A DNA stretch of 59,998 nucleotides, counting the filler, from an uncultured Methanosarcinales archaeon (GTDB lineage Archaea; Nanobdellota; Nanobdellia; Woesearchaeales; CAYSVS01), in NCBI GenBank assembly GCA_964589485.1. It is 4 parts of 4 records of this genome, joined end to end, with 100 filler letters (N's around TTAATTAATTAA, not from the genome) between each part and the next. Parts side by side here need not be neighbours in the genome. Positions count along the whole stretch, not along the records: positions 1 to 24,164 come from CAZPRK010000017.1; 3 more parts are not named here. One strand, 5' to 3'. Below, in pieces: positions 15,109 to 54,951 of this stretch. The translations under genes were made by a program, and so were the position numbers. Positions within the stretch are counted from its first letter, which is position 1. Every line of letters starts with the position of its first letter. The notes beneath the pieces were generated by a model that saw nothing but the letters and a program-made list of their open reading frames with translations, made no database searches and was not told where the DNA came from.

Positions 15109-15631
15109 CATCTTTAATACTTGACCCAGCAATTTCTACCTCGTCACCATCTAAAGAATATAAGTTATTACTTAATACTTTTGAAGCAAGCCTAGTGTCT
15201 GGACCTGTAAATCCAGCAACAATTAATGCAACTTTTCCATTATGTTCATATAATTTAATTTTAGCTTTCCCTTTATAAAACCCATCTCCGCATTGTTTTG
15301 GGTAACCCATAATTGCAGCAGTAACAGAATTAATACATGGTCCTCCAACAGAAATAACGTTATGAGAAAATTCTTTTCCCCTAAGTTCACTTGCCAAAAC
15401 TGCTTCAATTGCATTATGAGTTGGATTTAAACTTTTAGTATCGTAATTTAAACTAGTTGCTATATCTACACTTCCTATAACATCACTAGCTGCCGCATTG
15501 TCACCAACTACAATATAAGCATTAAAATAAATCTTTTCTCCAACACTAACTAAAAACATCTCAGGATAATCAGATAAATCAACAGCAGCTACAGGAACTA
15601 ATAAAAGTAAAAAAATAATTAACCATTTCAT
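15086..15631 (-). CDS. small S-layer-domain secreted protein
   Basis: Signal peptide; VVGDNAAASDV, VGGPCINSV and LIVAGF..DTR motifs resemble the termini of archaeal S-layer proteins. Confidence 0.7.
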   Translation of the reverse strand: MKWLIIFLLLLVPVAAVDLSDYPEMFLVSVGEKIYFNAYIVVGDNAAASDVIGSVDIATSLNYDTKSLNPTHNAIEAVLASELRGKEFSHNVISVGGPCINSVTAAIMGYPKQCGDGFYKGKAKIKLYEHNGKVALIVAGFTGPDTRLASKVLSNNLYSLDGDEVEIAGSSIKDVKLLSKQ

Positions 15632-15714: not shown

Positions 15715-15817
15715 GGGCCCGTGGTCTAGTGGCTATGACAGCGCCCTTACAAGTAGTAAGGGATTGTCTTACTACAAAGACAGGCGTTGATCCCCGGTTC
15801 GAGTCCGGGCGGGCCCA
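15715..15817 (+). tRNA. tRNA-Val(UAC) with canonical 30-nt intron (15752-15781)
   Basis: GGGCCCG/CGGGCCC acceptor stem; CT-TAC-A followed by an intron hairpin GTAGTAAG/CTTACTAC; T-loop TTCGAGT. Confidence 0.92.
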
Positions 15818-15825
15818 TTTCTTTT

Positions 15826-15897
15826 GCGACGGTAGTATAATGGCTATTATTCGGCCTTGCCAAGGCTGGGACCCGAGTTCAATCCTCGGCCGTCGCA
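15826..15897 (+). tRNA. tRNA-Gly(GCC)
   Basis: GCGACGG/CCGTCGC acceptor stem, CGGCC-TTGCCAA-GGCTG anticodon arm, T-loop TTCAATC. Confidence 0.95.
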
Positions 15898-16002
15898 TTT
15901 TACTTAAAAAAGATATGGTTTAGTTAGTAAGATATGAAGATTTAATGTCTTCTAAAAGTAAACCAAGTAAATGTTTTAATAAAAAAATTAGATAAATATT
16001 AT

Positions 16003-19000
16003 CTACTCTGGTTTAAATGGTTGTATAGAAGCAGAAACTGTTCTATCTCCACACAAAACCCATGCACCTAAGTACAATGGATAATTAACTTTTTCAATAA
16101 AATTTAAAGATATCCAAGTGCCATTATATACCCATGCTTTTCGAAAATCATTCATACATACATCAGAGATAAAACCATCTTCTAAAATACTATCTAAAGA
16201 AACCAAATTCCAACCATTTGTTAAGTTATTGTGAACATAATTAATATGGTGTGATAATTCTACATTACAATTACCATCAGATAAAGCCCACATACCATAA
16301 CCTCTACCAGTTATAGAATTTTTATTCCAAGTTCCATTATAGTTCCAAGTTTTTGCACAATCTATTTGTGTTGGATTATTAATACCTAACAAATGCCAAC
16401 CTTGGGATAAAACAGTATTAAAGTTATTTTGTATTACATTTATATTCCTAAAATCATAAAAACAATCATTATTACAAGCTTGAAGTTCAATTAAATGCTC
16501 TCCTGAATCAAATACTTTAGTAAAGTTTCCATAAAATAATTCACCATCTATTTTCCAAGTTAAATTATAATCTCCAGTTGCTCCTACAGAATAATCTAAT
16601 CCTGAAAATATATTTGACTCCATAACGATATCAGAAGAAAAATCTACATTATTTATATTAATTAACTTATTATAACTAGAACAATCATTTTCTTGATCAC
16701 AAACTTCTAAATTTACAAAATAATTTCCGCTAACATATTCAAAACTTTTTTCTGTGAAAACATCGTTATTAATAGCCCATCTATAAGTAAAAGGACCATT
16801 ACCTACACAATCAACAGAATTACTATTTATTTCACACTTAGGAAATGTATCGTGAGATACAGTAACTTTAAATGTTTCTTCTGAAAAATCTAAATCATTA
16901 TCTGATACAATTAGTTTAGCTAAAAATTCACCAACACCATCATAAATATGTCCAATAAACTTCCCCTCTTTATCGACACTACCATCACCATCAAAATCCC
17001 ATTCATATTTACTTATTGCTCCATCATTATCAATAGCATTACCTTCTAAATTTAATTTATCACCAAAATAAATTTGTTTATCTACTATTTCTGAAACAAT
17101 AGGAAATTCATTATTCTCTTTATCGCCTATAACAATTAATATATCTTTGATAACTTCTTTAATTCCGTCACTAACTAAAAATTTAACAAAATATTCACCT
17201 ACATCATCATATTCAGGAGTCCAAGTAAAAACATTTTTAGTTTGTTTAAACTTTGAAAAATTAGTACTATATGTTAAATCATCTAAATTTTTATCAATTG
17301 CATTTATCTGTATAAATACTTCAGAATATTCACTCGAAATAATATTAGAAACATCAAACTCAGGAGCATAATTATTTTTAGTAACAGTTATATCGATTTT
17401 ATTTTCAACAATATTTATGCCATCGTTTACTAATATTGTAAAGGTATGTTTTCCATGATCTCCTAATACTGTTTGCCATACAAATGTATCATTTATTCTT
17501 ATAAGCCTAGAATCATTAGTAAAAATTATTAACTTATTATTATCGGGATCATTAACTTTAAAACTAATAACTGCTGAAGATTCTTCAATTACATCATTAA
17601 CTTCATATTCAAAAGTAGGTAAACGGTTCTTATTTGTGACATTTATTACCAATAACTTTTTTATTGTATATTCTGCATCTGAAACTGTTATTTGAAAATG
17701 ATAAATACCTTCATCAAAAAATCCAGGAGTCCAAGTAAAAAGATTATTATTAAAATAACTTGAATTCATTGAATAAATTAAATTATCTTCATTTGGATCT
17801 ATAGCAATAATTTCTAAATTAATTAATTCATTTTCTGAAACAACCATATATTTATCTTCCAATATAGGTGCTAGATTATTTTCAATTTCAAAAACCAAAG
17901 AATGTTTCTGTAAAGATTCTCCATCAGAAATACTAAATTCAATTTCATGATTTCCTGAATCAATGAAATTAGTATTCCAAATAAATTTATTATCAGTTTT
18001 TATAAATTTATTACTATTAACTTCAAGGAAAACAGTATCATCATCAGGATCATTATAAGTAATTTCTACTTCAATTGTTTGATTCTCTTTAAAATTATAA
18101 ACACCGTTATTTAACTTACTATTTACAATAATATCATAAGTAGGTTCTCTATTTATATTAAGAATATTTAATGCAAATCTTTTAGTATCACTTAACTCAG
18201 AATCTGAAACAGTAACTGACATTTCATATTCACCTGCATCTTTAAAGTCTGTTTGCAAAATATAAGTATTTTGGCAATCATTACAAATAATATTTCCATT
18301 TAATTTATAATCATAAGTAAGTTTAAAATCATCTGGATCATTTGCATTAGTATTAATAATTAAACTGTCATTTTCTTTTATTGTAACATCTTTAAACTCT
18401 TCTAAGATAGGAGGATCATTAATTATTTCATAAGGAATATTTAAGTCAAATAAATTAATTCTTCCTGTGGATGATGACTCTATAACTAAATCCATTTCGC
18501 AATAACCTTTATCATCAGGTATACAAACATCTAAAAATTCATTTATTTGACTTTCAAAGCCAGTTACTAAAACTTCATCTAAAAGTTCACCATCGTATGA
18601 ATAAATTTGTTTATTATTCGCCCAAATTTTAATATCAGAAGGACGAATCAAATCAAAAAATACAGTCCCTTCTAATCCATTTGAACAAGCTTCAGTATCA
18701 CATAAATATGCTTTATAGTCTTTAGTTAATGTATCTATTTTTAATGAAGCTTGACAAGATTTTCCATTATTCTTTGAAAAAGGAGTTTCGCAAATAAGTT
18801 CACTAACACAAGACAATTCATTTAACCCTTTATCATCACATACGATAAGCTTATAGTTTTCATTATCAATATCTTCACCAGTTGCTTTGATTTCAAATTT
18901 ATGTTCTTCAATTATTGGATTATCTAAAGAAGATCCAGGACCATTGATATATACTACTTCTGTAAATATAGGTGGAGTATTTGCAATAACAACACTATTA

Positions 19001-20469
19001 CTTTTAACTGATTCTTCACTTATTAAAGAGGTAAAGTCTATAGCTTTATAAGAACACTGAATTATTTTACCAAGTCCGCAATCATCTACTGATGAACAAT
19101 CTAATTGATCAATACTTACATCTAATAATTGATTATTTACATACCAAAAGAATCTATTTAAATCAGTTTTATCATTATTTGGGTCAATAATTTCACCAGG
19201 AATACAAGTAATAGTTGAATTAGAATAAAATGTTCCTGAAATCAATGGTGAACTTACTAAAGGAGGTTTTTTTACTTTAATATATTTACTTTTATTCTTA
19301 GAACAGTAATCACTTTCATCACATACAAAAGCATGTAAAGTTAAATTAAGATCAGTTTTAGTAAAATTATATGAACAATCTATAGTATTTTCACTAGAAA
19401 AGTCAGTCGAACATAATGGTTTAACGCATTCATTATCTAATAATTCATTAGTTTCGCATAATAGTAACTTATTCCTAACTGTTTCAATACTACTCCAAGT
19501 TATTGAAACAGTAGATAATTCATTCATTATTATATCTGATGCTTGTATAGATTCTACTTTAGGTGGTTGATGTTGATGTGAACATTTATTTTCATCACAA
19601 TAATCAAATTCACCGCACTCTTTGTATAGAGACCAATCTCCATCTTTTATTTCTCCATTACAAGAACTACTTTGACCTGAACAAAATTGTTTTTGTATAT
19701 TTTGATAAACATCACTATTTAATTTATTTCCATTAGGACAACCATATCTAATTCCTGCGTCATCATTACAAATGTTATTAGAAGTTTTAAAATTCCCTTT
19801 AGAATCACAACATTGACCTGATTCACAATCTTTTATATAATAAGTTATATCTATATGTGGACCAAATATATCCCCGTATCCTATATTGTGAATTGAAATA
19901 TCATCAACACCTGAACTCACACCTCCTTTCATATAAACCGAATAGTATTCATTACTATTAAAAGCATCTTTTACATAGTTAGTTACATCTAAATCTACCC
20001 AAAAGTTTTGAAATATTTTACCATTTTCTTGAGCTTCATCTAAATCTTCATTATATATTTGAGACCCATGGTCAATTTGGCATTTTGAAAAAGCTCTATT
20101 CCAATCCATACAAGTTCTACAGCTATTATCGTTCCTTGTACTATGTTCTATTTTGACGGTTCCAGCGTTCGAAGCGTCTGCTAAATAAATTTTTAACTTC
20201 GCATTTGTTATTACTGCACCTTCAGGTACTTTATCATAGTAGTCACTCGGAAAACCTATTGTTAGTACAGGTCGTCTTTCTGCATCTTTATCATCCCTAT
20301 CATATTTTAAATGAGGAAATGCATATTTTTCACTTAAACTACAAGTATCTTCCCCAGCATATGCCTCATTAGTAATCATGCCAATTAAAGGAACTTTAAC
20401 TATAACTGGATCACCTGCATTGACTATCGGAATCATAAACAAAATTAATAAAAAAATAATTTTTTTCAT
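16003..20469 (-). CDS. large secreted adhesin-like protein with tandem cadherin-like/Ig and PKD-like repeats
   Basis: Signal peptide; repeated DPDxDxLxY..FxWTP..G.Y...F.VSDG units; YEWDFDGDG PKD-type motif; Cys-rich segments. Confidence 0.8.
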   Translation of the reverse strand: MKKIIFLLILFMIPIVNAGDPVIVKVPLIGMITNEAYAGEDTCSLSEKYAFPHLKYDRDDKDAERRPVLTIGFPSDYYDKVPEGAVITNAKLKIYLADASNAGTVKIEHSTRNDNSCRTCMDWNRAFSKCQIDHGSQIYNEDLDEAQENGKIFQNFWVDLDVTNYVKDAFNSNEYYSVYMKGGVSSGVDDISIHNIGYGDIFGPHIDITYYIKDCESGQCCDSKGNFKTSNNICNDDAGIRYGCPNGNKLNSDVYQNIQKQFCSGQSSSCNGEIKDGDWSLYKECGEFDYCDENKCSHQHQPPKVESIQASDIIMNELSTVSITWSSIETVRNKLLLCETNELLDNECVKPLCSTDFSSENTIDCSYNFTKTDLNLTLHAFVCDESDYCSKNKSKYIKVKKPPLVSSPLISGTFYSNSTITCIPGEIIDPNNDKTDLNRFFWYVNNQLLDVSIDQLDCSSVDDCGLGKIIQCSYKAIDFTSLISEESVKSNSVVIANTPPIFTEVVYINGPGSSLDNPIIEEHKFEIKATGEDIDNENYKLIVCDDKGLNELSCVSELICETPFSKNNGKSCQASLKIDTLTKDYKAYLCDTEACSNGLEGTVFFDLIRPSDIKIWANNKQIYSYDGELLDEVLVTGFESQINEFLDVCIPDDKGYCEMDLVIESSSTGRINLFDLNIPYEIINDPPILEEFKDVTIKENDSLIINTNANDPDDFKLTYDYKLNGNIICNDCQNTYILQTDFKDAGEYEMSVTVSDSELSDTKRFALNILNINREPTYDIIVNSKLNNGVYNFKENQTIEVEITYNDPDDDTVFLEVNSNKFIKTDNKFIWNTNFIDSGNHEIEFSISDGESLQKHSLVFEIENNLAPILEDKYMVVSENELINLEIIAIDPNEDNLIYSMNSSYFNNNLFTWTPGFFDEGIYHFQITVSDAEYTIKKLLVINVTNKNRLPTFEYEVNDVIEESSAVISFKVNDPDNNKLIIFTNDSRLIRINDTFVWQTVLGDHGKHTFTILVNDGINIVENKIDITVTKNNYAPEFDVSNIISSEYSEVFIQINAIDKNLDDLTYSTNFSKFKQTKNVFTWTPEYDDVGEYFVKFLVSDGIKEVIKDILIVIGDKENNEFPIVSEIVDKQIYFGDKLNLEGNAIDNDGAISKYEWDFDGDGSVDKEGKFIGHIYDGVGEFLAKLIVSDNDLDFSEETFKVTVSHDTFPKCEINSNSVDCVGNGPFTYRWAINNDVFTEKSFEYVSGNYFVNLEVCDQENDCSSYNKLININNVDFSSDIVMESNIFSGLDYSVGATGDYNLTWKIDGELFYGNFTKVFDSGEHLIELQACNNDCFYDFRNINVIQNNFNTVLSQGWHLLGINNPTQIDCAKTWNYNGTWNKNSITGRGYGMWALSDGNCNVELSHHINYVHNNLTNGWNLVSLDSILEDGFISDVCMNDFRKAWVYNGTWISLNFIEKVNYPLYLGAWVLCGDRTVSASIQPFKPE

Positions 20470-22646
20470 GAAGTTCCCCTCATTTTTAATAATGCAAATT
20501 TAGGTTTAGATTTCTTCAATAATTTTAATTTTAAAGTATGATTCCCTTTACCAAAATAAACAAAAGAATTTTCTTTACTTTTATCAGAAAACTCATTTAC
20601 AACATTATTATCATCAATAATCACCTTGAATTCTTTATTATCAGTGTATTTATCATCACTTACATTAACTTTAATATTAAATTCTCCAACGTGATGTTTA
20701 CCAGTTTGCCAATTTAAATTTTCATTAAATGGTTTGCTAATACCATACCTCAAATAATCTCCGTTCAAATCCTCGGCCTTAGGTCTTAATGTTATCTTTT
20801 CACCTTGCTTAATAACTAAATCTTGTATTGGTTTTAAAACTGGAGAAAATTCTTTATCAGTTCTTGCAATAAGAAATACTTTTTCAGAGATATATTTTTG
20901 ATTATCAAAAGTAATAAAAGTTTTTAATTTATAATAACCTGGATTTTTTGTTGTATCAAAAACTATAGGTTTAACTGTTAAAGCTGTGCTTAGTTCTTCA
21001 ATTTGAGAATATCTTGATATTTCAGTATCTTGTGAATCAGTTAGTAACATAGTAATATTTATAGGAAGAGTATTTAAATTATTTTTTAAGATAACATTTG
21101 CAACTAAGTTATTACTTAAATTTAATTTTTCTGGAATTGAAATTTCAAAATTAAGAGGAGAAATATATATGAAAAAATCGCTTCTCGTTTTACTTTCTTC
21201 GTTCTCATAAAACTCTACACTAAGCCTTAATGGACCTGACTTATCAGGAACTTTTATGGATATTGGAATGTCTTTAGTTTCTTGTGCAAAAAGTTCTTGA
21301 TTTACTTGGCCAATTATATTTTCTTCATCTTTAATTACAATTTGTCCAAATACACTTTCAGATTTTATGCTTCTTACTTTTACAAATACTTCAGCATCGC
21401 TATTAGGAGCAAAACTAGGTAAAGAATCTATTGCATCGATAATTACAGGACTATAAGGAATGTAATCTACAAAATATTTTACTTTTTTATATAATCTAAA
21501 TTTTCCTGCTTCACAATCTAAAACGTCAACAGGGATTACATCCACTAAGACTGTTTCACTATCTTCGGTAAAAGAATGAGAATATGAAAAAGATGCATTT
21601 AAAGTGTTTGCAAAACATTCTCTATTTGTAAAGCTACCATTCATCCACGTAGGAATATCTGCAATTATATCTACTGGATCTGCAAATTCAATCAAACTAA
21701 CATTTTGAATAACTGTTTTTAAAGGAAAATCAACAGTAATGATTTGTCGCGGTAAAACCAACAATTCATTAAAATAATTTTGTTCTGCAGTATCTGTTTG
21801 AATTAAATCAAAAGCACCAGTATCATTTATTTTAAAATCATTAATTCTAAAAGTATATGTACTCTTAAAAGCTGAACCTAAATTCATAATGTTATAATTT
21901 AAGCTATAATCTTCTAGATAATTATTACAAAATGATTTTAAACTTTTGTCAGAAAAATCAGAGGGCATATTAACTCCAACATTTGGATCACCATACAAAG
22001 CATACGAGAGCATACTCAAACCAACAAATTCATCTTCAGCATCTACACCCCAATAATAATTATTTCTTGCTTGTCTGAAAGTTTCACCTAAATCTCTAAA
22101 TGTTCTTAAATTACATACAAATGCTCTAACCATTTCTTTACTTGGGTAAGAGTTAGATGCAACCATTATTGAATTTGGAGAAAGTTCTCTAGATATAGAT
22201 CCTTTTCTAGGTAATGATAAACCAGCATGAGATGCATCCAAAACAAATAAAGGAGAAGAATCCCTAAATTTATTTTTTAATTCAGGTATATCAAGTTTAT
22301 TATACCCAAGATTAACACTAATATCATCTTTAACTAAACCATTACCTTCAAAAACAAATAATTCATTAGATTTGAAATTAAATTTGTTTGGATTTAAATC
22401 AAAACCATTACCAAAAATAGAACTAATAATTCCTGATTTTTTATTAAAATGGTAACTTAAACCATTAACATAAGTTGCATGCTTTAAGTCTAAAGTTTCT
22501 TTATCTAATTGTTGTTTCATCTCAGCAGGAGAATTGCCCACAATTCTTGCCACAGATGTAGTTTCGTAATCAGTAGTTAATGAAAATGATATAGGTATAA
22601 TTAGTAAAAATATGCAAAATAACATAATTTTATAATTTAAGTTCAT
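20466..22646 (-). CDS. secreted protein with C-terminal half of a C25/gingipain-like domain, propeptide-like region and Ig/cadherin-like domains
   Basis: Signal peptide; VARIVG, LDASHAG, LGETFRQAR and YALYGDPN motifs; stop overlaps the next start (ATGA). Confidence 0.65.
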   Translation of the reverse strand: MNLNYKIMLFCIFLLIIPISFSLTTDYETTSVARIVGNSPAEMKQQLDKETLDLKHATYVNGLSYHFNKKSGIISSIFGNGFDLNPNKFNFKSNELFVFEGNGLVKDDISVNLGYNKLDIPELKNKFRDSSPLFVLDASHAGLSLPRKGSISRELSPNSIMVASNSYPSKEMVRAFVCNLRTFRDLGETFRQARNNYYWGVDAEDEFVGLSMLSYALYGDPNVGVNMPSDFSDKSLKSFCNNYLEDYSLNYNIMNLGSAFKSTYTFRINDFKINDTGAFDLIQTDTAEQNYFNELLVLPRQIITVDFPLKTVIQNVSLIEFADPVDIIADIPTWMNGSFTNRECFANTLNASFSYSHSFTEDSETVLVDVIPVDVLDCEAGKFRLYKKVKYFVDYIPYSPVIIDAIDSLPSFAPNSDAEVFVKVRSIKSESVFGQIVIKDEENIIGQVNQELFAQETKDIPISIKVPDKSGPLRLSVEFYENEESKTRSDFFIYISPLNFEISIPEKLNLSNNLVANVILKNNLNTLPINITMLLTDSQDTEISRYSQIEELSTALTVKPIVFDTTKNPGYYKLKTFITFDNQKYISEKVFLIARTDKEFSPVLKPIQDLVIKQGEKITLRPKAEDLNGDYLRYGISKPFNENLNWQTGKHHVGEFNIKVNVSDDKYTDNKEFKVIIDDNNVVNEFSDKSKENSFVYFGKGNHTLKLKLLKKSKPKFALLKMRGTS

Positions 22647-23319
22647 CTTTATACCTCTTATGGATATCTTCCAGATCTATTCCAGCAATTAACTTTTTTC
22701 CTTCTAAATATGCATTTTTAAAATAACCCAAATCTGAAGTTAACCTATCTTTATTTACAATATCTCTTAATAATAAAAAAATACAAACCTTAAATGTGGG
22801 TTGATTTTCAACAAACTGTTTTAAATGCAATATTACAAAATCAAGTTTAATAGCAGTTGGTATAAAAGTAACAATATCTCCATGACTAGGCATTACTTTC
22901 TTTGAGCTACCACCACTAATATAATCACAAAAATCTTGATTGGTTGCATAATCTAAATATAAACATGCTTCTAAAAAGTCATTATTTTTTTTCAAAAAAT
23001 GTTTTATTTCATTTTCAGTTATTTTTTTTTCAGACTTAATAAATTCCTTTGCAAATAAATTAGAAAATTTAAAACAAACAAATGGAGCAATCCAAAATTT
23101 AAAAAACACTTCATTATGAAAATCAACATTAGTTTTTCTTAAATATTTTTTAAAATCAGAAACATCAATATCTTTAAATTTATTTATTTGAGTAATATCT
23201 GTATTATGTAAACTTTTAATAATAATAGAATTATAAAAAATTGAAATAAGACTTTTTTTGTGATATACTAATCTATTCAATACATATAAACTTAAATCTA
23301 ATTTAAGAGACATTTGCAA
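22630..23319 (-). CDS. hypothetical protein, candidate immunity protein
   Basis: 229-aa AT-rich ORF without a signal peptide, overlapping the end of the HEXXH ORF; start may be the ATG at 23313. Confidence 0.55.
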   Translation of the reverse strand: MQMSLKLDLSLYVLNRLVYHKKSLISIFYNSIIIKSLHNTDITQINKFKDIDVSDFKKYLRKTNVDFHNEVFFKFWIAPFVCFKFSNLFAKEFIKSEKKITENEIKHFLKKNNDFLEACLYLDYATNQDFCDYISGGSSKKVMPSHGDIVTFIPTAIKLDFVILHLKQFVENQPTFKVCIFLLLRDIVNKDRLTSDLGYFKNAYLEGKKLIAGIDLEDIHKRYKDELKL

Positions 23320-24164
23320 TCACCTTCGATTCAATAACTGAACTAAGTTCAATTACTTTATAAAAAACTGTACTAATTTGTTCAGTTTCTTGTTTCATAA
23401 TATTAGAATTTATATAAAGCACCTCAGAAAGTTGATTTATTTCTTCATAATATGACGCCTTAGCAATTTCTAAGTCTAATAAATTCAAAATATTTTTGTT
23501 GTTCGCTACATTAACACCTTTATCAATTCCTAATTTAGCCAAAGATCTAGCATATGCCAAATAATGTCCTTCTACTAAAGCAGCAGTTCTTTGAGCTTTT
23601 AAACTAGATTCACCTATCTTTATAGCTCTTTGAAAAAAATGTGCATAAACGTTATTAGACCAAGTACTAATACCTTCCTTATTAATTCTACCTTCAAAAG
23701 CAACCTTTACATAATTATCAACGCCGTATTCAGAGAACTTATTTAATGCAGTTATATCTGCGGCAATTTCAAGTAAACCTATTGCACCCCACTCACCACC
23801 ATCTACATAACTAAGTAAAAAAGGATCTTTTTTTAATTTTTGACTTAATACAGTTAAAGACTTTGCATGAGATAATTCATGAGCAATTATTTTTGGACTT
23901 GGAGCAAGTTTTATAGGAAAGGTTATTTTTTTAGAAGTAGGGTTATAAGTCCCTCTTAATTTTGGAGGAAAATCTTCAAATACAATTGATTTAACAGATC
24001 CTTCAGGAATATCAATTTTACGAATCATTTCACCTAAACTTATCAAAAAGTCATCATTTAAATCATTATATGGGATACCTTCAATATTAATACCTAATTT
24101 TCTTAAAAAGTTTAAAGCTTCTGCACCATTTTCGAAATTCTTTGATGTCTTAGCAAAATTTTTA
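23303..24164 (-). CDS. C-terminal 268-aa tip (HEXXH zincin-like) of the giant subtilase protein at 48951-54341
   Basis: Frame is open to the contig edge (KNFAKTSKNFENGAEALN-FLRKLG...ISLGEMIRK); 24110-24164 is identical to 48951-49005; AHELSH motif at ~23867-23884. Confidence 0.8.
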
Positions 24165-24264: not shown

Positions 24265-24389
24265 TTATATGTTTGTATTTTGTTAAATGCTTCTTGTACA
24301 TAATTTTCTCCAAATAATAAAATACCTTCTTGATGGGCTTTTTTAATTTCAGATATTTTTCTATTTTTAGATGCAGCTAGAATTCTCAT
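24265..24389 (-). CDS. yggS: YggS/PROSC family PLP-binding protein, 5' fragment
   Basis: MRILAASKNR...FGENYVQEA; ATGA overlap with the PfkB stop; cut by the contig edge. Confidence 0.85.
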
Positions 24390-25360
24390 AGTAAATGTTT
24401 AATGTCTATTTCTTTATTTAATCTTGCTCCAATTTGTTGTACTACTATACTTGCGGCATAACTTCCAATTTCACCACATTTTTCTAATGGGTGCTTGTTA
24501 CTTAATCCGAATAATACTCCTGCGGCATACATATCTCCTGCACCCGTGGTGTCGATAGCATTAACTGTAAAAGAATTTATTTTATGTACATTATCTTTAT
24601 CTTTAATCAAACTTCCTTTTTCTCCAAGTTTAATAATGGCAATGTCTGCAAATTTTGATAATTCTGTTAAAGCTTCTTCATTTTCTTGACCTGTAAATGC
24701 TTTTGCTTCTTCTTCGTTAACAAAAACTATATCTGCATATTTTTTAACAATTTCTTTTAAGTCATCTAAACACCTTTTGATTAAAGAGGGATCTGCTAAA
24801 TCAATAGAAATTTTAACATTATTTTGTTTTGCAATATCGAGCGCATGAAATGTAGCTTTTCTTAAATTAATATCTTCTAATTGATACCCAGTTAAATGTA
24901 AGTATTTACTTTTTTTAATATCATTTTCAAATACTTCTTCTTTTCTTAATTCAATACAAGATCCCAAATGAACTGCAAATGTTCTTTCATTGTCTGGGGT
25001 TATTAAACATATACATTTTCCAGTTACTCCATCAACTTTAACTAATTTAGATTTAACTTTTGACGATTCTAAAGTTTCTTCATAATATGCACCGTGTTCG
25101 TCATTTCCTACTTTACCGCAAAAAATAACATTTCCTCCTAATTTAGCAATTCCAGCTAAAGTATTTGCTGTTGAATCACCTGGTGATATTTTAATATCAT
25201 GATGGTTTATTTTTTTTAACATGGAATGTAGTTCATTTTGAGATAAAGGGTTGAATGTTCCTTTTTCTAAATTAAGGTCCATAATTAAATCGTCATTTAC
25301 TTTAAGAAGAAGGTCAATGAGTGGGTTGCCAATCCCACAAACATCGTGATTATTCTGCAT
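24386..25360 (-). CDS. PfkB family carbohydrate/adenosine kinase
   Basis: GIGNPLID, GKVGNDEHG, NEEEA and DTTGAGDMYAAG motifs. Confidence 0.92.
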   Translation of the reverse strand: MQNNHDVCGIGNPLIDLLLKVNDDLIMDLNLEKGTFNPLSQNELHSMLKKINHHDIKISPGDSTANTLAGIAKLGGNVIFCGKVGNDEHGAYYEETLESSKVKSKLVKVDGVTGKCICLITPDNERTFAVHLGSCIELRKEEVFENDIKKSKYLHLTGYQLEDINLRKATFHALDIAKQNNVKISIDLADPSLIKRCLDDLKEIVKKYADIVFVNEEEAKAFTGQENEEALTELSKFADIAIIKLGEKGSLIKDKDNVHKINSFTVNAIDTTGAGDMYAAGVLFGLSNKHPLEKCGEIGSYAASIVVQQIGARLNKEIDIKHLL

Positions 25361-25919: not shown

Positions 25920-25961
25920 CTATTGCTTGGGATTAACTACCTATATTAATATTTTTTGTTC

Positions 25962-32006: not shown

Positions 32007-32008
32007 GA

Positions 32009-38989: not shown

Positions 38990-38990
38990 T

Positions 38991-48895: not shown

Positions 48896-48932
48896 TGTCA
48901 TAACCTAAAACAAACTTAGGACACTTTTCTAT

Positions 48933-51900
48933 TTAACTGTCAAACTTGGGGTTTAAAGCTTCTGCACCATTTTCGAAATTCTTTGATGTCTTAGCAAAAT
49001 TTTTAATAACATCATCATCAGCACCTCCTAAATATGCAAAAAAAGCTTTACTGTTTTCAGCACCTTTACTAAATACAGAAATACTTCCCTTAACAATTTC
49101 AACCAATTTCCCAGGAGATCTTGCAATCAACTTCACACTACCTATCATCAACTGAGGTACACTAAGAATAGTATCTGCAGCATCTTTAACTGCCTTCGTA
49201 CCAATAGTTTTTGCCATTTCTGGTAAATTATTCTTCAAAAATACTTTCACAGTAGCAATACTTCCATCAAAAACTTCTCCAGCAAGTCCAGTTCCTCCTG
49301 CAGTAGCAATAGCTGCACCCCAAGTCGCATAATCATATGCAGTAGCTGCATGAGTTATTCCACAAATTAATCCTTCTACTGGATCATTGTCAATAATTTG
49401 CAAATAAAAAGGATTTACTGGAAGATACTCTTTACATTTCCAACTGTCTCTTGCATCTACTATTAATTCAACAACAGGAATCATGTTACAAGTTATTTCC
49501 TCAGCAGTTGGATGTTTTGCGCCTTCAAACTTTCCATCCCATAAACAAGCAACAACTGAATCAGAAAAATCCCAACTTGAATTTGGACCTTTAGTGATAA
49601 TGTTTTTCATAGCAAGAATATTATCATAAATTTCATCATCAGAACGCAATACCAATGCATAATGCTCAGTGTCCCAAACATTTTTTTGTATAGACATTGA
49701 ACTTTTTTCTTTACTTACAAAAGGAAGACATGCTATTGCATTATTATCTTTTTCTGTTCCAACTAAAACTAAAGTATGTTCATCTAATTTTGAATGAGAA
49801 TTACATCCTACTTGTGAAGATTCTAATACAGAAATAGTTCCAGCATCTTCATAACGATCATCAATAACATCTTGTAATTTATTTATTTCTTCAAGTAAAT
49901 TATTTCCAGGATTATCTGGAACAACAAAAATAATATCCTGCTCTACAAAAAGTTCATCAGTATCTTTAAATGCTTTAGATGTTTGTTGTATGTAGGGATA
50001 ATCTGAATAAATTGTTTTTATTTCACTTGCATCGGAAACTCTACCTAACAAAGGCCAATTTATACCTTTCATCAAAGAAACATCTCTTCGATAATGTGGA
50101 ACTACAAAATCATCTCCAATAATTAATAATTTTCCTAAGTCACATGAATTTTTACATTTATTCTTAATAAAATCTGCAACTTTAAGAGAATATACATTAT
50201 TAATATAAGAATAATCATAATCTTCTTTATAATCATTAAAACTTTGCCAAGGTCTTTCACCGATTTGTTCATAATACAAGTCATAAACTATGCCGTTATT
50301 CCTTTCAGCATTTTTGTATGCAGATTCAATTAAATCTACAACTTCTACTTCAGCAGTAAAAGGAAATTCTTGATCTAAAGCTTGACTATCGGTTAAAATA
50401 ATAAAACTAGGATCATTTATTATTTCAATTTTAAATACATATTTTCCTGAAATAATTGAGTAAGTTCCAATTGCATTTTGATCAATAGCTAATTTAAATT
50501 TATTAGGGCCCTTAACAACACTCAATTTATTATCATTATATTCACCATTTAAAAGCATAAAATCATTTGGAAGATCTAAGCTGATTTTTTGAATGTCAAC
50601 AGAATCAATAGTAAGAGTTAACAAATCATTTGGTTGCTTAAAAATAGTAATATCGCTTTTAGCATTACCATCTACTTTCATAGAATAACCAAATTGACGA
50701 ATACATTCACCTGAGACACAACCAAACTCACATTTCTCTAATAATGTTCTTGATGAATCATAACTACATGATGATGAAACTGTTCCAGGATTATTACAAA
50801 CTCCACTGCCTGAAGTAATATACAAATCTCCACCTGAACAAAACGGTCTATCTACAAAATAAGAATTACTACAATCATTATTATTGTTACAAGAAATATC
50901 TAAACAAACTCCATTAGAACATTTACTTCCCGGATTACATTGTTGTACAGTTCTAATTTCCGTAGTACAATCTATTTTTCGGTAAACTTTTTGAACATTT
51001 TGTTCATCTGAACAAAAATTAGTTCCAATAAATCCTTCTTTACAAGAAGTAGCTAAATCAAAAGTAACTAATGCCTGGTCATAATTTAATCCGTCTGAAA
51101 CTAAAACCCTTACACTCCTATCTCCTGCCTCAGGGTCTTCAATTATAAAATCACTTTCAGCATTTGTATTTTCATCACAGTTATCACAATCTCCTTGACA
51201 ACTATCCCAATTCCAACCACCTAAAAAAATACCAGATTGAGAATTATCATTCCAATAATCAAAACATGTAAATTTAATATCTCCTATGTGATTATTATTG
51301 TTAACACCAATAATTCCTCCACTTGAAACACACCGATTACTTTCAACATTATTTGTACATCTAGGACTTGAAAGAACTGCTTTAAAAGGAACACATGCTC
51401 CATTCTGACAAATATTATTATCTTTACAAGTTTCTTGAGGATATTCTACTTCATTACACCTATAATCTATATTTTTTACATAAATACTATTCCCATTACA
51501 ATAAGGATCAGAAGTTTTAGGTTCACAAAACTCATTAGTTATACATTGGCCAACTTCACACACTTTTTCGCCACATTCTTCTATTAAAACAAAATCTTCT
51601 TTTTCACAGTTCAAAATAAATTTTCTATAAACATCATTATCTCGGCAAACTTTAGCCAACGCTTGTTTAGGGGTAGGGCATTCTGCATCAGGATCATAAT
51701 CGCATGTATAAATTCTATCAAAACCTACTGCTTTTTGATAACCTTTAGCATCTTTATGATAATAATCTCCATTACAATCATTTGTACACTTTACATCCGG
51801 TATATAATCGTATTGAATCGCACCTAATTTAATACTTTTATCACACCAATCTTCCGGAATATTTTCAGTAGTAAGATATTTTTCAATATTCAAATTTTGT

Positions 51901-54341
51901 CCTAGTTTGTAAGGTGCTCCTTTATTATATATAAAATCAGTAATATGTCTTGTTGTACCATCATAGTCCCAAAATAAACTTACTTTTATTCCTGAAGCTG
52001 CCCTAGTCATTTTATAAAAAGTATTAGTTAATATTGATGTAATCGGATTAAGAATTCCTCCAAAAGTTGCATCTCCTATAATATAATTAGTACTAATCCT
52101 TTCAGATTGATTATATTCACAAACTTCATTCAATTCTGTGTATTTTACTGTTTTATTATAAGTTTCAATACAAGAACAAGAATTAGTATCTAATTCAAAA
52201 TCTTTATAATTTTTCAACAATGAGAATTTTCTACTATTAGAACAAACTTTACCAAAATTATCATACCAACCATCTAACTTATCACAAGATGATTCGTCTT
52301 TCAAACAATAGTTAAAACCAAAACTTAATTTTCCAGATACTTGCAACTCTTCAGATTTATAAATTTCATCACTTCCATAAAAACATACCTTAATTTCATC
52401 ATTTTTAATAGAACAAGTAGTTTCTAAATCAAAACTAACGTTATTTGTTATAAACTTCTCCAAAATATTAACTGAACATGAGTTAACAGTATCATTAAAA
52501 AAAGTAAAACTTTGGCAAAGATGACTTCTAGAATTGAGCTTAGTTGTAAAATAAAATCCATCATCGTACCATAAACGCCCCGTCTTATCGGCATTTAAGT
52601 TTTGAAATGGAAACATTTCTAAAACTTCAAAATTAAAAGATTCAGTATTAACAATATCTTTATTTTTACTATTTAAAATAATTTCATAATCTCCAGGAAT
52701 TATAGTTTCATTAAATATAATTGAATTTGAATTTTCTGTTACAACTTTCTTATTTGGCATAACAATTTCAATTCGTGAATCATAGTCTGTATCAAAGGAT
52801 ACTTTATTTACTTCTCCAACAATTAAATATTTTTCAAAATTTACATTTTTAATAATAGGAAAGTCATAATCATCATATATTGCAATTGGGATTTTGAAGT
52901 TATTTACTGAGTTTATAGTTAAATTACCAATTCCTTCAAAATCATCAAAGATTTTAGATTCGAAAGGAGATAAAATAAATTGATCTAATATATTAGAACC
53001 TAATAATAAAGTTACTTCTACTTCTTGAAGACCATAATAAGTAAGTTCAAGTTTAGAATCTTTTAATATTTTATTAATATTAGATTTAATTTTACCCCTA
53101 AATACATCATGAATATTTAATAAACCTGAACCAAACTTTATCAAATCACCTTTTTCTTGAGCTGTATTCTTAAACAAATCTTTAACTTGATAATGATCTA
53201 AGCTTTTTTTTTCCAAAACCAAAGCAGTCATACCTGTAACAAAAGCCGTAGATAAACTTGTCCCTGATTTTTGTACATAACCATTTACATTTGATGTAAT
53301 AATATCAACTCCAGGAGCAACAACATCTGGTTTTATGTAATCACTTTCATACCCACCTGAAAAATCAGCATAATTTCCTAATTTATCTACTGCACCTACA
53401 GTAATTGCATTTTCCATATTTCCTGGAGTTGTAACTCCAACAAAACCTCCGCATTTAGGATTATTATTGAACGGCCCACAATTACCAGCACTAATAATTA
53501 CTTTTATGCCTCTATCAATAGCAGATTGAATTGCCATTAGTAAAGGAGAATCTTTATTCTCAATATAAGTTCCACCGAAACTCATTGATATAATATCAAC
53601 CTTTTTTTCAATAGCATAATTTATACCTGCAATTATATCACTAGTAACTCCATTTCCTTCATCATTTAGAACTTTAACATTATATAATTGAATGTTAGGG
53701 GAAATTCCATTAAAACCTTCACCATTATCTGATTTGCTTCCTGCAATAATTCCAGCCATCATAGTACCATGACCATTTTTATCAATAGGATTATTCTCAA
53801 GAGTAAAATCAATAGAATCAATAATTTTATTTCTTAAAATTGGATGATTACTAATTCCTGTATCCAATATAGCTACTTTTATTCCTTTTCCACTAAAATT
53901 ATTTTCAATATTTTTAGAAAAACCAATAAGTGGTTTACTTTCTTCAACCATAGTAAAATACTTTCTCTCTGGAGAAGCTTTTACTATAAATTCAGACTGA
54001 GCAATAACTTCTAAACTTTCAGAAGGAATATCTGCAACAATCACCCCAGATTCAAATGAATTTTCAACATATCCATCATTTTCTTTAATTTGTCTTTTAA
54101 CTTTATCAAAATCATTAGGTTTTACAGTAAATAAAGCTTTTACATTGGAATTATTTCTAGCTTCCTCAATTAAACTTTTATCAATTACAGCACCTTTTAA
54201 TTCATAAGAAACGAAACCAATGGGTTTAAAATCAATATTAGGTTCATCAACAAAATAGAAAATTGTTCCATATAAAAAAAACAGAATAGTAAAAAAGAGT
54301 AATACGTTCTTCCACCTAACTTTCAACCACAATCCCCCCAA
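48933..54341 (-). CDS. giant surface protein: TM anchor, S8 subtilase, Cys-rich repeats, C25-like N-half, pre-toxin-like segment; continues into 24109-23303
   Basis: Catalytic triad motifs VAILDTGI, HGTMMAG and SGTSLS; LLIIGDDFVVP..SDYPY; IPVVELIVDARD and a Gly/Ala-rich helix; 55-nt overlap with the end of contig 1. Confidence 0.85.
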   Translation of the reverse strand: MGGLWLKVRWKNVLLFFTILFFLYGTIFYFVDEPNIDFKPIGFVSYELKGAVIDKSLIEEARNNSNVKALFTVKPNDFDKVKRQIKENDGYVENSFESGVIVADIPSESLEVIAQSEFIVKASPERKYFTMVEESKPLIGFSKNIENNFSGKGIKVAILDTGISNHPILRNKIIDSIDFTLENNPIDKNGHGTMMAGIIAGSKSDNGEGFNGISPNIQLYNVKVLNDEGNGVTSDIIAGINYAIEKKVDIISMSFGGTYIENKDSPLLMAIQSAIDRGIKVIISAGNCGPFNNNPKCGGFVGVTTPGNMENAITVGAVDKLGNYADFSGGYESDYIKPDVVAPGVDIITSNVNGYVQKSGTSLSTAFVTGMTALVLEKKSLDHYQVKDLFKNTAQEKGDLIKFGSGLLNIHDVFRGKIKSNINKILKDSKLELTYYGLQEVEVTLLLGSNILDQFILSPFESKIFDDFEGIGNLTINSVNNFKIPIAIYDDYDFPIIKNVNFEKYLIVGEVNKVSFDTDYDSRIEIVMPNKKVVTENSNSIIFNETIIPGDYEIILNSKNKDIVNTESFNFEVLEMFPFQNLNADKTGRLWYDDGFYFTTKLNSRSHLCQSFTFFNDTVNSCSVNILEKFITNNVSFDLETTCSIKNDEIKVCFYGSDEIYKSEELQVSGKLSFGFNYCLKDESSCDKLDGWYDNFGKVCSNSRKFSLLKNYKDFELDTNSCSCIETYNKTVKYTELNEVCEYNQSERISTNYIIGDATFGGILNPITSILTNTFYKMTRAASGIKVSLFWDYDGTTRHITDFIYNKGAPYKLGQNLNIEKYLTTENIPEDWCDKSIKLGAIQYDYIPDVKCTNDCNGDYYHKDAKGYQKAVGFDRIYTCDYDPDAECPTPKQALAKVCRDNDVYRKFILNCEKEDFVLIEECGEKVCEVGQCITNEFCEPKTSDPYCNGNSIYVKNIDYRCNEVEYPQETCKDNNICQNGACVPFKAVLSSPRCTNNVESNRCVSSGGIIGVNNNNHIGDIKFTCFDYWNDNSQSGIFLGGWNWDSCQGDCDNCDENTNAESDFIIEDPEAGDRSVRVLVSDGLNYDQALVTFDLATSCKEGFIGTNFCSDEQNVQKVYRKIDCTTEIRTVQQCNPGSKCSNGVCLDISCNNNNDCSNSYFVDRPFCSGGDLYITSGSGVCNNPGTVSSSCSYDSSRTLLEKCEFGCVSGECIRQFGYSMKVDGNAKSDITIFKQPNDLLTLTIDSVDIQKISLDLPNDFMLLNGEYNDNKLSVVKGPNKFKLAIDQNAIGTYSIISGKYVFKIEIINDPSFIILTDSQALDQEFPFTAEVEVVDLIESAYKNAERNNGIVYDLYYEQIGERPWQSFNDYKEDYDYSYINNVYSLKVADFIKNKCKNSCDLGKLLIIGDDFVVPHYRRDVSLMKGINWPLLGRVSDASEIKTIYSDYPYIQQTSKAFKDTDELFVEQDIIFVVPDNPGNNLLEEINKLQDVIDDRYEDAGTISVLESSQVGCNSHSKLDEHTLVLVGTEKDNNAIACLPFVSKEKSSMSIQKNVWDTEHYALVLRSDDEIYDNILAMKNIITKGPNSSWDFSDSVVACLWDGKFEGAKHPTAEEITCNMIPVVELIVDARDSWKCKEYLPVNPFYLQIIDNDPVEGLICGITHAATAYDYATWGAAIATAGGTGLAGEVFDGSIATVKVFLKNNLPEMAKTIGTKAVKDAADTILSVPQLMIGSVKLIARSPGKLVEIVKGSISVFSKGAENSKAFFAYLGGADDDVIKNFAKTSKNFENGAEALNPKFDS

Positions 54342-54384: not shown

Positions 54385-54909
54385 TTACTTCTCAAATAAC
54401 AACTTCTTCTTAATTGGATACATTTTCTGCATTTGAATAAATTGATCTTCATCTAAACTTAAAGGACTTACTATATAATTAAACTCCGCTTTAATATCAG
54501 CACATACTTGTTTAATTTCCGGCTGATATAACTCTTCACCTAGTAAAATAACATTAGCACTATTTTTTTCTTCTTTACCTTGAATATAAATTTTCTTTAA
54601 ATTTGGTAAATTTTTAATTTTAGTAACAAAAACTTGTAATGCTTGTTTTTCCTTTTTGACTATTTGGCCAAGAAACCTACTTTGTTCATTATCATCTAAA
54701 ACATATACTTTGAATTTAGATAACTTAACTTCCTTAATTATATTATAATCAACCAACTTTCTAACTATTCTAAAAGTTGAAGCTAAAGGTACTTTGGACA
54801 ATTTAGATAATTCCCTAATGTAAAACTCTTTATTATCATGTTGAAAAAATTGTCTAAGTACGGCTAAGATTTTAGCATCAAATAATTTTTCAAGTATATC
54901 GTTCCCCAT
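54385..54909 (-). CDS. winged-HTH regulator fused to a degenerate nucleotidyltransferase-like domain
   Basis: EFYIRELSKLSKVPLASTFRIVRKL HTH; KKIYIQG...ANVILLG lacks the GS..DxD motif; likely start MGNDIL. Confidence 0.72.
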   Translation of the reverse strand: MGNDILEKLFDAKILAVLRQFFQHDNKEFYIRELSKLSKVPLASTFRIVRKLVDYNIIKEVKLSKFKVYVLDDNEQSRFLGQIVKKEKQALQVFVTKIKNLPNLKKIYIQGKEEKNSANVILLGEELYQPEIKQVCADIKAEFNYIVSPLSLDEDQFIQMQKMYPIKKKLLFEK

Positions 54910-54951
54910 TAAATTATTAATATATAAGCTCATATTTAATGTTTTCTTTTT

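Follow-up and report, generated by a model that had tools for sequence, protein, structure and literature searches.

A split gene of a DPANN archaeon encodes a 2065-aa candidate polymorphic toxin with an exchangeable C-terminal tip

Two contig pieces within a 59,998-nt stretch of archaeal DNA, hereafter the window, are parts of a single gene whose 2065-aa product probably belongs to a family of polymorphic toxins or effectors, with an exchangeable C-terminal tip, a likely immunity gene and constant partners. The family as a whole gives good support to the polymorphic-toxin reading; the window locus supports it only in part.

Results

Two contig pieces form one gene

The window comprises four contigs (positions 1-24164, 24265-36502, 36603-48795 and 48896-59998) with N44-TTAATTAATTAA-N44 spacers between them. 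The features at the junction are as follows.

24110..24164, no strand assigned: end of contig 1, an assembly-graph overlap equal to 48951-49005 that codes aa 1779-1797
48896..48950, no strand assigned: alternative path after the shared 55-mer, the first 55 nt of contig 4, with ORF end PKFDS*
48951..54341, minus strand: N-terminal part (1797 codons) of the 2065-aa protein, on contig 4; its product equals residues 1-1797 of database protein P0003
23303..24109, minus strand: variable tip, the C-terminal 268 codons and stop (contig 1), with HELSH at 23867-23881

Comparison of sequences within the window showed that the repeat at 24110-24164 and 48951-49005, which an earlier sequence-only reading had reported, is exact over 55 nt. 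In contig 1 the shared 55-mer is terminal, and in contig 4 it is set back from the end by 55 nt. Because there is a second 55-nt overlap, in which the end of contig 3 is the reverse complement of the end of contig 4, we attribute both to k=55 assembly-graph overlaps and not to chance. The reading frame carries over the join unchanged, giving 1797 + 268 = 2065 aa. This in-frame join, also predicted in the earlier reading, is matched exactly by P0003, a database protein of 2065 aa encoded on a 78-kb contig, which is identical to the contig-4 ORF at 1797/1797 residues and to the contig-1 piece at 286/286.

In the assembly, contig 4 continues from the shared 55-mer along another 55-nt path, and its ORF stops 5 codons later. 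If that were the true end of the gene, the join would be an assembly artefact; we consider this extremely improbable, given that P0003 fits the join exactly, that the homologue P0004 aligns across the junction (P0003 aa 1226 to 2009), and that the alternative path has exactly the length of one k-mer, none of its 15-mers occurring elsewhere in the window. We conclude that the two contig pieces are one gene encoding a 2065-aa protein, and that the join is real.

Architecture of the 2065-aa protein

The contig-4 part holds a transmembrane (TM) anchor, an S8 subtilase domain, a Cys-rich region, a conserved core and a pre-tip linker, in this order (all on the minus strand). Residue numbers are those of P0003, whose database cluster has five members.

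54246..54314, minus strand: signal anchor, a single TM-grade hydrophobic segment, aa 10-32 (Kyte-Doolittle scan, maximum 2.37)
53124..53891, minus strand: S8 peptidase (subtilase) domain at aa 151-406, matched by Pfam PF00082 over its whole profile (1-288/288) at E 1.6e-51
50667..52544, minus strand: variable middle region rich in Cys (46 residues, 7.3%), aa 600-1225
49542..50666, minus strand: core conserved in the family, aa 1226-1600, with 33 invariant columns in alignment A1
48951..49541, minus strand: pre-tip linker, aa 1601-1797, with the IPVVELIVDARDSWKC motif and a Gly/Ala-rich segment

The anchor is the only TM-grade segment found by the Kyte-Doolittle scan, and the protein would be exported and displayed at the cell surface. 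The S8 domain retains the Asp-His-Ser triad (D160, H191, S362) and the oxyanion residue N287. Anchor, intact subtilase and Cys-rich region had all been recognised from the sequence, and our analysis agrees. MopE-type Cys motifs occur in the middle region of relatives; the Cys-rich region of the window copy (aa 600-1225) had no Pfam match.

The core combines an Ig-like beta-sandwich with an alpha/beta domain and carries the motifs GDDFVVPHYRR, CNS and NNAxxCxPFV. We had taken GDDFVVPHYRR and CNS to be the mark of a caspase- or C25-like releasing peptidase. That assignment is not supported, because Foldseek comparison of the AF2 model (pLDDT 77.9) with the PDB matched the Ig-like part alone, at TM 0.28 or less; neither a delivery fold nor a peptidase fold was recognisable in this comparison.

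The linker contains a D-x-R-D...C motif as well as the Gly/Ala-rich segment, and its similarity to the nearest relatives stops at about aa 1746-1785. We take IPVVELIVDARD to resemble PT-TG. A Pfam search of aa 1500-1802 at E up to 10 detected none of the known pre-toxin domains PT-TG, PT-VENN and PT-HINT; of the pre-toxin-like segment proposed earlier, the motif and the Gly/Ala-rich stretch are present and the match to a Pfam pre-toxin domain is not.

The tip is a putative zinc peptidase

A search of 1.84 billion representatives yielded three relatives of the tip (P0013-P0015). Residues H95, E96, L97, H99, G129, E132, A135 and D136 of the tip alignment (A2) are invariant, such that HELxH and G..E..AD are kept in 4/4 tip sequences at 23-31% identity; the HEXXH motif of the sequence-only reading is therefore present, as HELSH. 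An AF2 model of the tip, which is poor (pLDDT 58), places strands, the HExxH helix and a further helix in a zincin-compatible order. Foldseek, one of the checks suggested earlier, gave no usable fold match for this model (E 0.2 or worse), and the tip sequence had no match in Pfam (E up to 10), the PDB (phmmer and profile searches), NCBIfam or the ESM Atlas. On the conserved motifs, we regard the tip as a putative HExxH...E zinc peptidase, and it may be toxic.

A conserved scaffold carries exchangeable tips

Approximately 30 relatives share the 375-aa core. All of their records are labelled DPANN or other archaea, and the family extends across genomes labelled Woesearchaeota, Nanoarchaeia and Micrarchaeota. 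The core-sharing sets analysed were 10 relatives, 12 relatives and 15 genomic loci (alignment A1). As the sequence-only reading had anticipated, homologues combine a conserved scaffold with different tips and different downstream genes: 29 tails fell into 14 groups, in many pairs the tails agree over their first 70-200 aa and the tips do not, and the small ORFs that follow vary. P0004 and P0005, whose scaffolds are the closest, show 50-72% identity to the window protein at aa 1586-1745 and about 20% after aa 1746; the higher identity extends through 1745 in P0004, falls to 25% in 1706-1745 in P0005, and each has one lower window, 1626-1665. Conversely, P0013 is 20-35% identical at aa 1586-1745, yet 32-40% identical in the tip.

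Several relatives end in domains of toxin type. In L003/P0010 (E 2.3e-5) and L011 (E 7.7e-6), the very C-terminus matched the Pfam Scabin-like domain, with scores just below the Pfam cut-off (24.7 and 26.3 versus 27 bits), and a profile of the ADP-ribosyltransferase-type tip group matched the toxin TreX in the PDB (E 2.2e-5). The tips of L003/P0010, L011, P0018 and P0021 match Scabin (PF22596) or TreX (PDB 8s2m, as described in part in PMC11606950) over nearly the whole domain; this likeness concerns tips of relatives and not the window tip, and has near-threshold scores. HExxH motifs recur in divergent tips (P0004/L009, P0005, P0006 and L010). Tree tests were merely suggestive: monophyly of the ADP-ribosyltransferase tips was not rejected (p-AU 0.067), and monophyly of the window-type tip was rejected marginally (p-AU 0.027).

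The S8 domain is missing from at least five complete relatives (L004, L005, L009, L010 and L012), in which core and tips are kept. Release of the tip by the subtilase, as the sequence-only reading had it, is therefore not supported as a general mechanism.

Downstream genes and flanks

Genes downstream of the tip, and the flanking features, are listed below.

22630..23319, minus strand: 229-aa ORF in the immunity-gene position, overlapping both neighbours by 17 nt and lacking a TM segment
20466..22646, minus strand: 726-aa secreted protein, conserved partner of the big gene, with homologues in related loci (alignment A3)
16003..20469, minus strand: 1488-aa secreted Ig-repeat protein with Pfam Big_9, PKD, He_PIG and cadherin-like domains
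15825..15898, plus strand: tRNA-Gly(GCC), just past the end of the gene row
54385..54933, minus strand: upstream ORF of 182 aa and weak candidate for an HTH protein (Pfam HTH_IclR, TrmB and MarR, E 0.012-0.19, sub-threshold)

The 229-, 726- and 1488-aa ORFs overlap by 17, 17 and 4 nt, and the row ends beside tRNA-Gly; overlapping genes and the tRNA-Gly end had been described previously. The HTH regulator that had been placed upstream fared less well: the 182-aa ORF gave the sub-threshold Pfam matches listed above, had no match in related loci, the PDB or NCBIfam, and is not conserved.

No homologue of the 229-aa ORF was found in the 15 related loci, no family in Pfam or NCBIfam, and none of 186 candidates from a word-based search of 5.8 billion clusters reached E <= 0.01. 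From the position of its gene, the 229-aa protein is likely to be the cognate immunity protein. The earlier proposal of an adjacent immunity gene thus stands as to position, and drew no support from homologues or from co-variation. Since this ORF has no homologue, the co-variation of tip and small gene described below is known from the tip classes of relatives alone.

In 10/10 related loci that include both the end of the big gene and a 726-aa homologue, a plus-strand ORF of 76-309 aa lies directly after the big gene. These small ORFs are homologous in 3/75 locus pairs (L002-L005, L003-L011 and L006-L007), which are exactly the pairs with the same tip, and in 0/72 of the others. L003/L011 and L002/L005 are not nearest neighbours by core; the third co-varying pair, L006-L007, is simply close kin (77% core identity). 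L009 and L010, the HExxH tips of which are distantly similar, have unrelated small ORFs. Two orphan cassettes occur in locus L004: the C-termini of two extra ORFs match the tip of L002 (E 6e-44 and 3e-13), and a homologue of the small ORF of L002 comes after each. There are no such cassettes in the window locus, where the 229-aa ORF is the only one between the tip and the 726-aa gene. Among 14 small or neighbouring ORFs of related loci, none matched a known immunity family significantly; the best match, to colicin/pyocin immunity in L004, was sub-threshold (E 0.0073).

Homologues of the 726-aa protein occur downstream of the big gene in 11/15 loci (E 1e-59 to 1e-121), and in 11/11 of those with enough downstream DNA. 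The sequence-only reading had listed this secreted gene and had missed that it is the big gene's conserved partner. The N-terminal 600 aa of the protein matched no family in Pfam or the PDB. Its neighbours in the ESM Atlas are C25 clusters (score 0.81), which is a lead at most. We rejected assignment to Peptidase C25 (gingipain-like): Pfam C25 was detected in 0/12 family members, a PDB profile search matched Ig/cadherin parts alone, and the candidate His in LDASHAG is not kept, the consensus residue in alignment A3 being Y. Large proteins related to the 1488-aa protein come after the 726-aa homologue in L001 and L003.

Discussion

We propose that the 2065-aa protein is membrane-anchored and outward-facing. 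Its constant part (signal anchor, often S8, Cys-rich stalk, 375-aa core and pre-tip linker) would carry an exchangeable C-terminal tip, here a putative HExxH...E zinc peptidase and in relatives an ADP-ribosyltransferase or one of several other domains. The tip would be released and enter a target cell, either a rival cell or the host archaeon, and the product of the 229-aa gene would neutralise it. The 726-aa and Ig-repeat proteins would act as constant partners, probably in display, attachment or delivery. The polymorphic toxin layout that the sequence-only reading had put forward holds at the level of the family, where it is seen in the scaffold, the 14 tail groups, the ADP-ribosyltransferase tips, the small ORF that tracks the tip and the L004 cassettes; for the window tip and the 229-aa ORF themselves, the support consists of the conserved HELxH...E motif and of gene position, respectively.

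An alternative is that these genes encode an ordinary surface protease/adhesin complex for host attachment or feeding, with no toxin and no immunity, in which the C-terminus evolves fast, the HExxH motif belongs to a peptidase used in processing or nutrition, and the small ORFs are unrelated genes that also evolve fast. The S8, Ig-like, PKD and cadherin-like domains and an S-layer-type neighbour would fit such a role at the cell surface, the window tip and 229-aa ORF lack a toxin or immunity match, and SPEARE (PMC6642349) is a known case of giant DPANN surface proteins that have protease and adhesion domains. However, fast drift does not explain why similarity falls sharply at a single boundary, or why ADP-ribosyltransferase toxin domains occupy the same position in relatives. 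Nor does it account for a tip and small ORF common to loci with non-neighbouring cores, or for the orphan cassettes of the two in L004. Taken together, we regard an adhesin complex as unlikely. It is also conceivable that the HExxH domain serves for release or maturation, as a peptidase similar to the PVC-metallopeptidases, with the effector elsewhere, for example in the Gly/Ala-rich segment or the partner proteins. HExxH PVC-metallopeptidases are mostly releasing, even when C-terminal, according to the relevant section of Zhang et al. 2012 (PMC3482391), and HExxH is found in several divergent tips of the family. Against this, the extreme C-terminal slot is that of the ADP-ribosyltransferase domains of relatives, a private small ORF comes directly after it, and neither DUF4157 nor PVC-peptidase was matched in the tip by Pfam at E up to 10. 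We judge a releasing role to be distinctly improbable, and return to the polymorphic-toxin reading.

Bacterial polymorphic toxins (Rhs, CdiA, LXG and Sec-dependent) are described in the sections of PMC3482391 used here as large secreted multi-domain proteins, constant in their N-terminal and central parts, with exchangeable C-terminal toxins and an immunity gene directly downstream; orphan tip/immunity cassettes, subtilisin among the processing proteases, and both HExxH and ADP-ribosyltransferase tips are described there too. The archaeal family has in common with them, on that description, the conserved scaffold, exchangeable tips, small downstream gene and orphan cassettes. Unlike in the bacterial systems, RHS, filamentous haemagglutinin, PAAR, LXG, HINT and known pre-toxin domains were not detected here, and no known immunity family was matched in the archaeal loci; the archaeal family instead has a core with no PDB fold match and the conserved 726-aa partner, and was found in DPANN-labelled or other archaeal genomes only. 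The HExxH tips Tox-MPTase1-5 and Tox-HopH1 are C-terminal on polymorphic toxins, and the table in PMC3482391 lists no immunity protein for them. The likeness of the window tip to Tox-MPTase1-5 and Tox-HopH1 is at the level of the motif alone, with no sequence or fold match to described zincin families.

Two archaeal systems also invite comparison. The first is the SPEARE group of Nanohaloarchaeota (Hamm et al. 2019, PMC6642349), giant DPANN surface proteins that are anchored in the membrane and for which a role in host interaction has been proposed. Like the window protein, they combine a membrane anchor and giant size with a serine protease; SPEARE also have adhesion domains and a toxin-like part. 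They measure 3300-8500 aa and are best conserved in a cytoplasmic restriction-endonuclease region. The portions of that account used here describe no polymorphic tip or immunity gene, and the two families are set apart on this description. By Pfam, the C-terminal cytoplasmic type III restriction-enzyme region and the laminin-G domains of SPEARE are absent from P0001, P0002 and P0003. The hypervariable Ig-domain module of Thermococcales pairs a large archaeal surface protein with variable downstream genes and has been likened to polymorphic toxins (PMC8416519, in part); compared by description, it belongs to another lineage and has another architecture than the window family.

A broader possibility, which we advance tentatively, is that the family represents a polymorphic effector apparatus specific to DPANN lineages, in which swappable payloads and private immunity genes are directed against host archaea or rival symbionts. 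Such an apparatus would consist of the new core domain, the obligatory 726-aa partner and the Ig-repeat protein, would be unrelated to the Rhs, CDI, T6SS and T7SS scaffolds, and would deliver ADP-ribosyltransferases, zinc peptidases and other domains as payloads. The assembly-graph branch at the tip boundary may then record tip variation in the sampled population.

Classical polymorphic toxin systems are rare in archaea, as stated in the relevant part of Zhang et al. 2012 (PMC3482391), and a full-text search, which left aside the archaeal toxin survey of Makarova et al. 2019 (mBio), found no paper on a DPANN polymorphic toxin family. In short-read MAGs, the boundary between scaffold and tip is where such genes are systematically broken, and members of the family are therefore easily missed. 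The family bears on two little-understood matters: the means by which DPANN archaea attack, hold or exploit hosts, and their competition with one another. With a scaffold and a partner gene that are both conserved, and with at least 14 types of tail, it supplies concrete, testable candidates for study: the tip/immunity pairs, the core domain and the 726-aa partner.

Results

The large gene spans two contigs

The window consists of four contigs (1-24164, 24265-36502, 36603-48795 and 48896-59998; G+C 26-29%) separated by spacers of the form N44-TTAATTAATTAA-N44, and is thus not one stretch of the genome. Two open reading frames on different contigs are the pieces of the large gene:

48933-54341, minus strand: P0002, the contig-4 ORF, 1802 aa
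23303-24163, minus strand: P0001, the contig-1 ORF, open-ended, 286 aa

Positions 24110-24164, the very end of contig 1, are identical over 55 nt to positions 48951-49005, set back 55 nt from the edge of contig 4. A further match involves contigs 3 and 4: the last bases of contig 3 (48741-48795) are the exact reverse complement, again over 55 nt, of the end of contig 4 (59944-59998). Given this second identity, we conclude that both are overlaps from a k=55 assembly graph rather than repeats arising by chance; contigs 3 and 4 are probably head-to-head neighbours in the genome. At the first overlap, P0002 and P0001 are read in one codon phase, giving 1797 + 268 = 2065 aa. A 2065-aa database protein from a 78-kb contig, P0003, is identical to P0002 over 1797/1797 residues and to P0001 over 286/286, and the alignment of a database relative, P0004, runs straight across the junction, from aa 1226 to 2009 of P0003. 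The 55-nt identity, the frame and the identity of P0003 to both pieces bear out the join of contigs 1 and 4 proposed in the sequence-only reading.

As assembled, contig 4 departs from the shared 55-mer by another 55-nt path (48896-48950), on which the ORF ends in PKFDS-stop; on the gene strand this is followed by about 30 nt and ATGACA. No 15-mer of this path occurs elsewhere in the window. That the path is exactly one k-mer long points to a graph edge leading elsewhere in the genome, or into a strain variant at the tip boundary. The branch (aa 1779-1797) falls at the boundary between scaffold and tip.

A conserved core carries variable tips

The joined protein has a single TM-grade segment (aa 10-32), an S8 subtilase domain matched over its full length (aa 151-406; Pfam E 1.6e-51; D160, H191, N287 and S362 present), a Cys-rich region (aa 600-1225, 46 Cys), a core (aa 1226-1600), a linker comprising IPVVELIVDARDSWKC and a Gly/Ala-rich non-TM segment, and a tip, the last ~270 aa, containing HELSH. 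The anchor, the S8 domain with its triad motifs, the Cys-rich part and the HEXXH tip noted earlier are all found in the sequence or by Pfam. Throughout the family the core is conserved (alignment A1: 10 sequences, 33 invariant columns, GDDFVVPHYRR among them), and its AF2 model is decent (pLDDT 77.9), with an Ig-like sandwich and an alpha/beta domain. Foldseek against the PDB matched the Ig-like part alone (TM <=0.28); the core therefore lacks a known fold counterpart and has no recognisable peptidase fold.

The C-terminal 500 aa as query found 10 proteins at E of 0.001 or better (7999 candidates scored), and a core profile found 12 (7998 scored). Scanning one genome per GTDB species produced 84 pattern matches, 16 of them confirmed, in 15 distinct loci (L001-L015). 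All 15 are from archaeal MAGs or SAGs, with titles naming Woesearchaeota, Nanoarchaeia, Nanoarchaeota and Micrarchaeota and one plain 'archaeon'. L002, L006, L007, L013 and L014 are titled 'uncultured Methanosarcinales archaeon' and the remaining loci are DPANN-labelled; either these titles are generic, or the family extends beyond DPANN. The S8 domain is present in 16 family members; at least five complete ORFs with both core and tail lack it (L004, L005, L009, which is P0004, L010 and L012). We conclude that the constant element of the family is the core, not the subtilase; release of the tip by the subtilase, as had been suggested, finds no support as a general mechanism.

Tails, the post-core sequences of 29 proteins, fell into 14 groups by single linkage when similarity was required to reach the last 200 aa, so conserved scaffolds with different tips, which the sequence-only reading had suggested looking for, do occur. 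Many tail pairs are alike over the first 70-200 aa and no further; those of L004 and L010 share 47% identity for 200 aa, beyond which they are unrelated. By sliding identity, the 2065-aa protein matches P0004 and P0005 at 50-72% over aa 1586-1745 and at ~20% from aa 1746, the higher range holding to aa 1745 for P0004 and dropping to 25% in 1706-1745 for P0005, with one lower-identity window each at 1626-1665. Relative P0013 is only 20-35% identical in the linker, yet 32-40% in the tip. Such a profile is that of a mosaic. In a tree of 26 cores (L008, L014, L015, P0014 and P0015 were left out because their cores are partial or absent), ADP-ribosyltransferase (ART) tips occur at three positions and the window-type tip at two. 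AU tests of this distribution are only suggestive (ART tips as one clade, p = 0.067; P0003 with P0013, p = 0.027).

The ART tips match the Pfam Scabin-like domain at the extreme C-terminus of L003 (P0010; E 2.3e-5) and L011 (E 7.7e-6), covering nearly the full profile and scoring 24.7 and 26.3 bits where the cut-off is 27. The best PDB match of the group profile, A4, is TreX (8s2m; E 2.2e-5, chain residues 15-136 of 140), described as a secreted interbacterial ADP-ribosyltransferase toxin (PMC11606950).

Among 1.84 billion representatives, the window's tip has only three relatives at E of 0.001 or better: P0013 (1762 aa), P0014 (393 aa) and P0015 (706 aa). Invariant in their alignment are H95, E96, L97, H99, G129, E132, A135 and D136, which make up an HExxH motif with a Glu further on, as in gluzincins. 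HExxH also occurs in other divergent tips of the family (P0004/L009, P0005, P0006 and L010). The structure model of the window's tip is poor (pLDDT 58), and the tip has no match in Pfam, PDB, NCBIfam or the Atlas, or by Foldseek. P0014 stands alone and starts exactly at the Gly/Ala-rich pre-tip segment, and so could represent either an orphan cassette or a fragmentary gene.

Neighbours of the large gene

A homologue of the 726-aa partner lies downstream of the large gene in 11 of the 15 loci (E 1e-59 to 1e-121). In the other four (L005, L011, L013 and L014) the DNA stops <=860 nt after the large gene or inside it; hence no locus with enough DNA lacks the partner. Across loci, the large gene and the 726-aa/Ig-repeat family are all that is shared, with no conserved regulator or ATPase. 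The HTH regulator previously placed ahead of the row is weak (Pfam E 0.012-0.19), lacking conservation, PDB or NCBIfam support. For the 726-aa protein itself (window 20466-22646, minus strand), the ESM Atlas places archaeal Peptidase_C25 clusters nearest (score 0.81), an assignment that neither Pfam nor PDB confirmed; conservation is lacking at the candidate catalytic His.

In each of the 10 loci where both the end of the large gene and the 726-aa homologue are available, a plus-strand ORF of 76-309 aa comes directly after the large gene. Small ORFs were compared over 13 loci (12 plus the window) in 75 of 78 pairs, those among L005, L007 and L011 being left out. Three pairs were homologous at E < 1e-3 (L002-L005, 1e-47; L003-L011, 3e-20; L006-L007, 6e-25), and these are exactly the three same-tip pairs among the 75; L003-L008 gave a borderline match (E 0.002). 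By our own arithmetic, which ignores relatedness, such a coincidence has a chance of 1 in 67,525. L006 and L007 are close relatives (77% core identity). L003/L011 and L002/L005 are not nearest neighbours by core, and the nearer cores, L004 and L010, bear different tips and different small ORFs.

Between its large gene and 726-aa homologue, L004 carries an array (5094-9343) of a 187-aa ORF, two tip-like ORFs, two homologous small ORFs and a 363-aa membrane protein, which includes:

5647-6336: extra ORF, C-terminus matching the L002 tip (E 6e-44)
6338-6907: homologue of the L002 small ORF, after the first extra ORF
6904-7638: extra ORF, C-terminus matching the L002 tip (E 3e-13)
7641-8216: homologue of the L002 small ORF, after the second extra ORF

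The arrangement corresponds to the orphan-cassette pattern of polymorphic toxin loci. The tip-like ORFs have signal-peptide-like N-termini similar to that of the 726-aa homologue, and the 187-aa ORF has a sub-threshold match to colicin/pyocin immunity protein (E 0.0073; 16.8 against a 21.2-bit cut-off).

At the window locus, the 229-aa ORF overlaps each neighbour by 17 nt, has no TM segment, and has no homologue in the loci or, by word-based search, among 5.8 billion clusters, which agrees with its earlier description as an overlapping orphan. Since an open frame of this length would arise by chance at 27% G+C with a probability of about 1e-9 (own arithmetic), it is probably a real gene. Its position and the family pattern are what make its product a putative immunity protein.

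Other features of the window

The window is archaeal by its split RpoB, TFB, GINS51, L15e, GatD/GatE, NMD3, ATP-dependent ligase and FtsZ. The stretches 2-3037 and 4343-6238 (both minus strand) hold the RNA polymerase B subunit, split into two ORFs as is an archaeal trait, and a gene for DNA gyrase B. Rfam found two more tRNAs missed by ARAGORN, probably intron-bearing archaeal tRNAs: 15715-15817 (plus strand, 103 nt), just upstream of tRNA-Gly, and 45399-45486 (minus strand, 88 nt). Just past the tRNAs that end the gene row lies a 181-aa secreted protein (15086-15631, minus strand) with an S_layer_C domain (E 2e-12). Contig 3 encodes a tyrosine recombinase (Phage_integrase, E 7e-24; 38165-38989, minus strand) and a DUF2779 protein (36647-37528, plus strand), perhaps the remnant of a mobile element.

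Discussion

The reading we consider most likely, with moderate confidence, is that the window locus encodes a polymorphic effector system in a DPANN archaeon. The polymorphic toxin layout first proposed holds for the scaffold/tip mosaic, the ART tips and the tip-matched small ORFs of relatives; none of the known trafficking, repeat and pre-toxin domains is present here. The layout agrees with bacterial polymorphic toxin systems, for which Zhang et al. 2012 place subtilisin among the processing proteases and list HExxH and ADP-ribosyltransferase tips, while describing classical systems and immunity families as scarce in archaea (PMC3482391). Unlike those systems, the family has a core without a fold match and a 726-aa partner specific to it. 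In concept, the closest DPANN analogue is the SPEARE proteins of Nanohaloarchaeota, whose architecture differs (PMC6642349). A full-text search that did not cover the survey of Makarova et al. 2019 found no published account of such a DPANN family, and a prior description may exist.

In the proposed system, a membrane-anchored, outward-facing scaffold would bear an exchangeable C-terminal payload, at this locus a putative zinc peptidase, with a private immunity gene directly downstream. The constant 726-aa partner and the Ig-repeat protein would probably have a part in display, attachment or delivery. That immunity-like genes are present argues for exposure of sister cells, or of the producer itself, to the payload, which might be aimed at rival cells or at the host archaeon.
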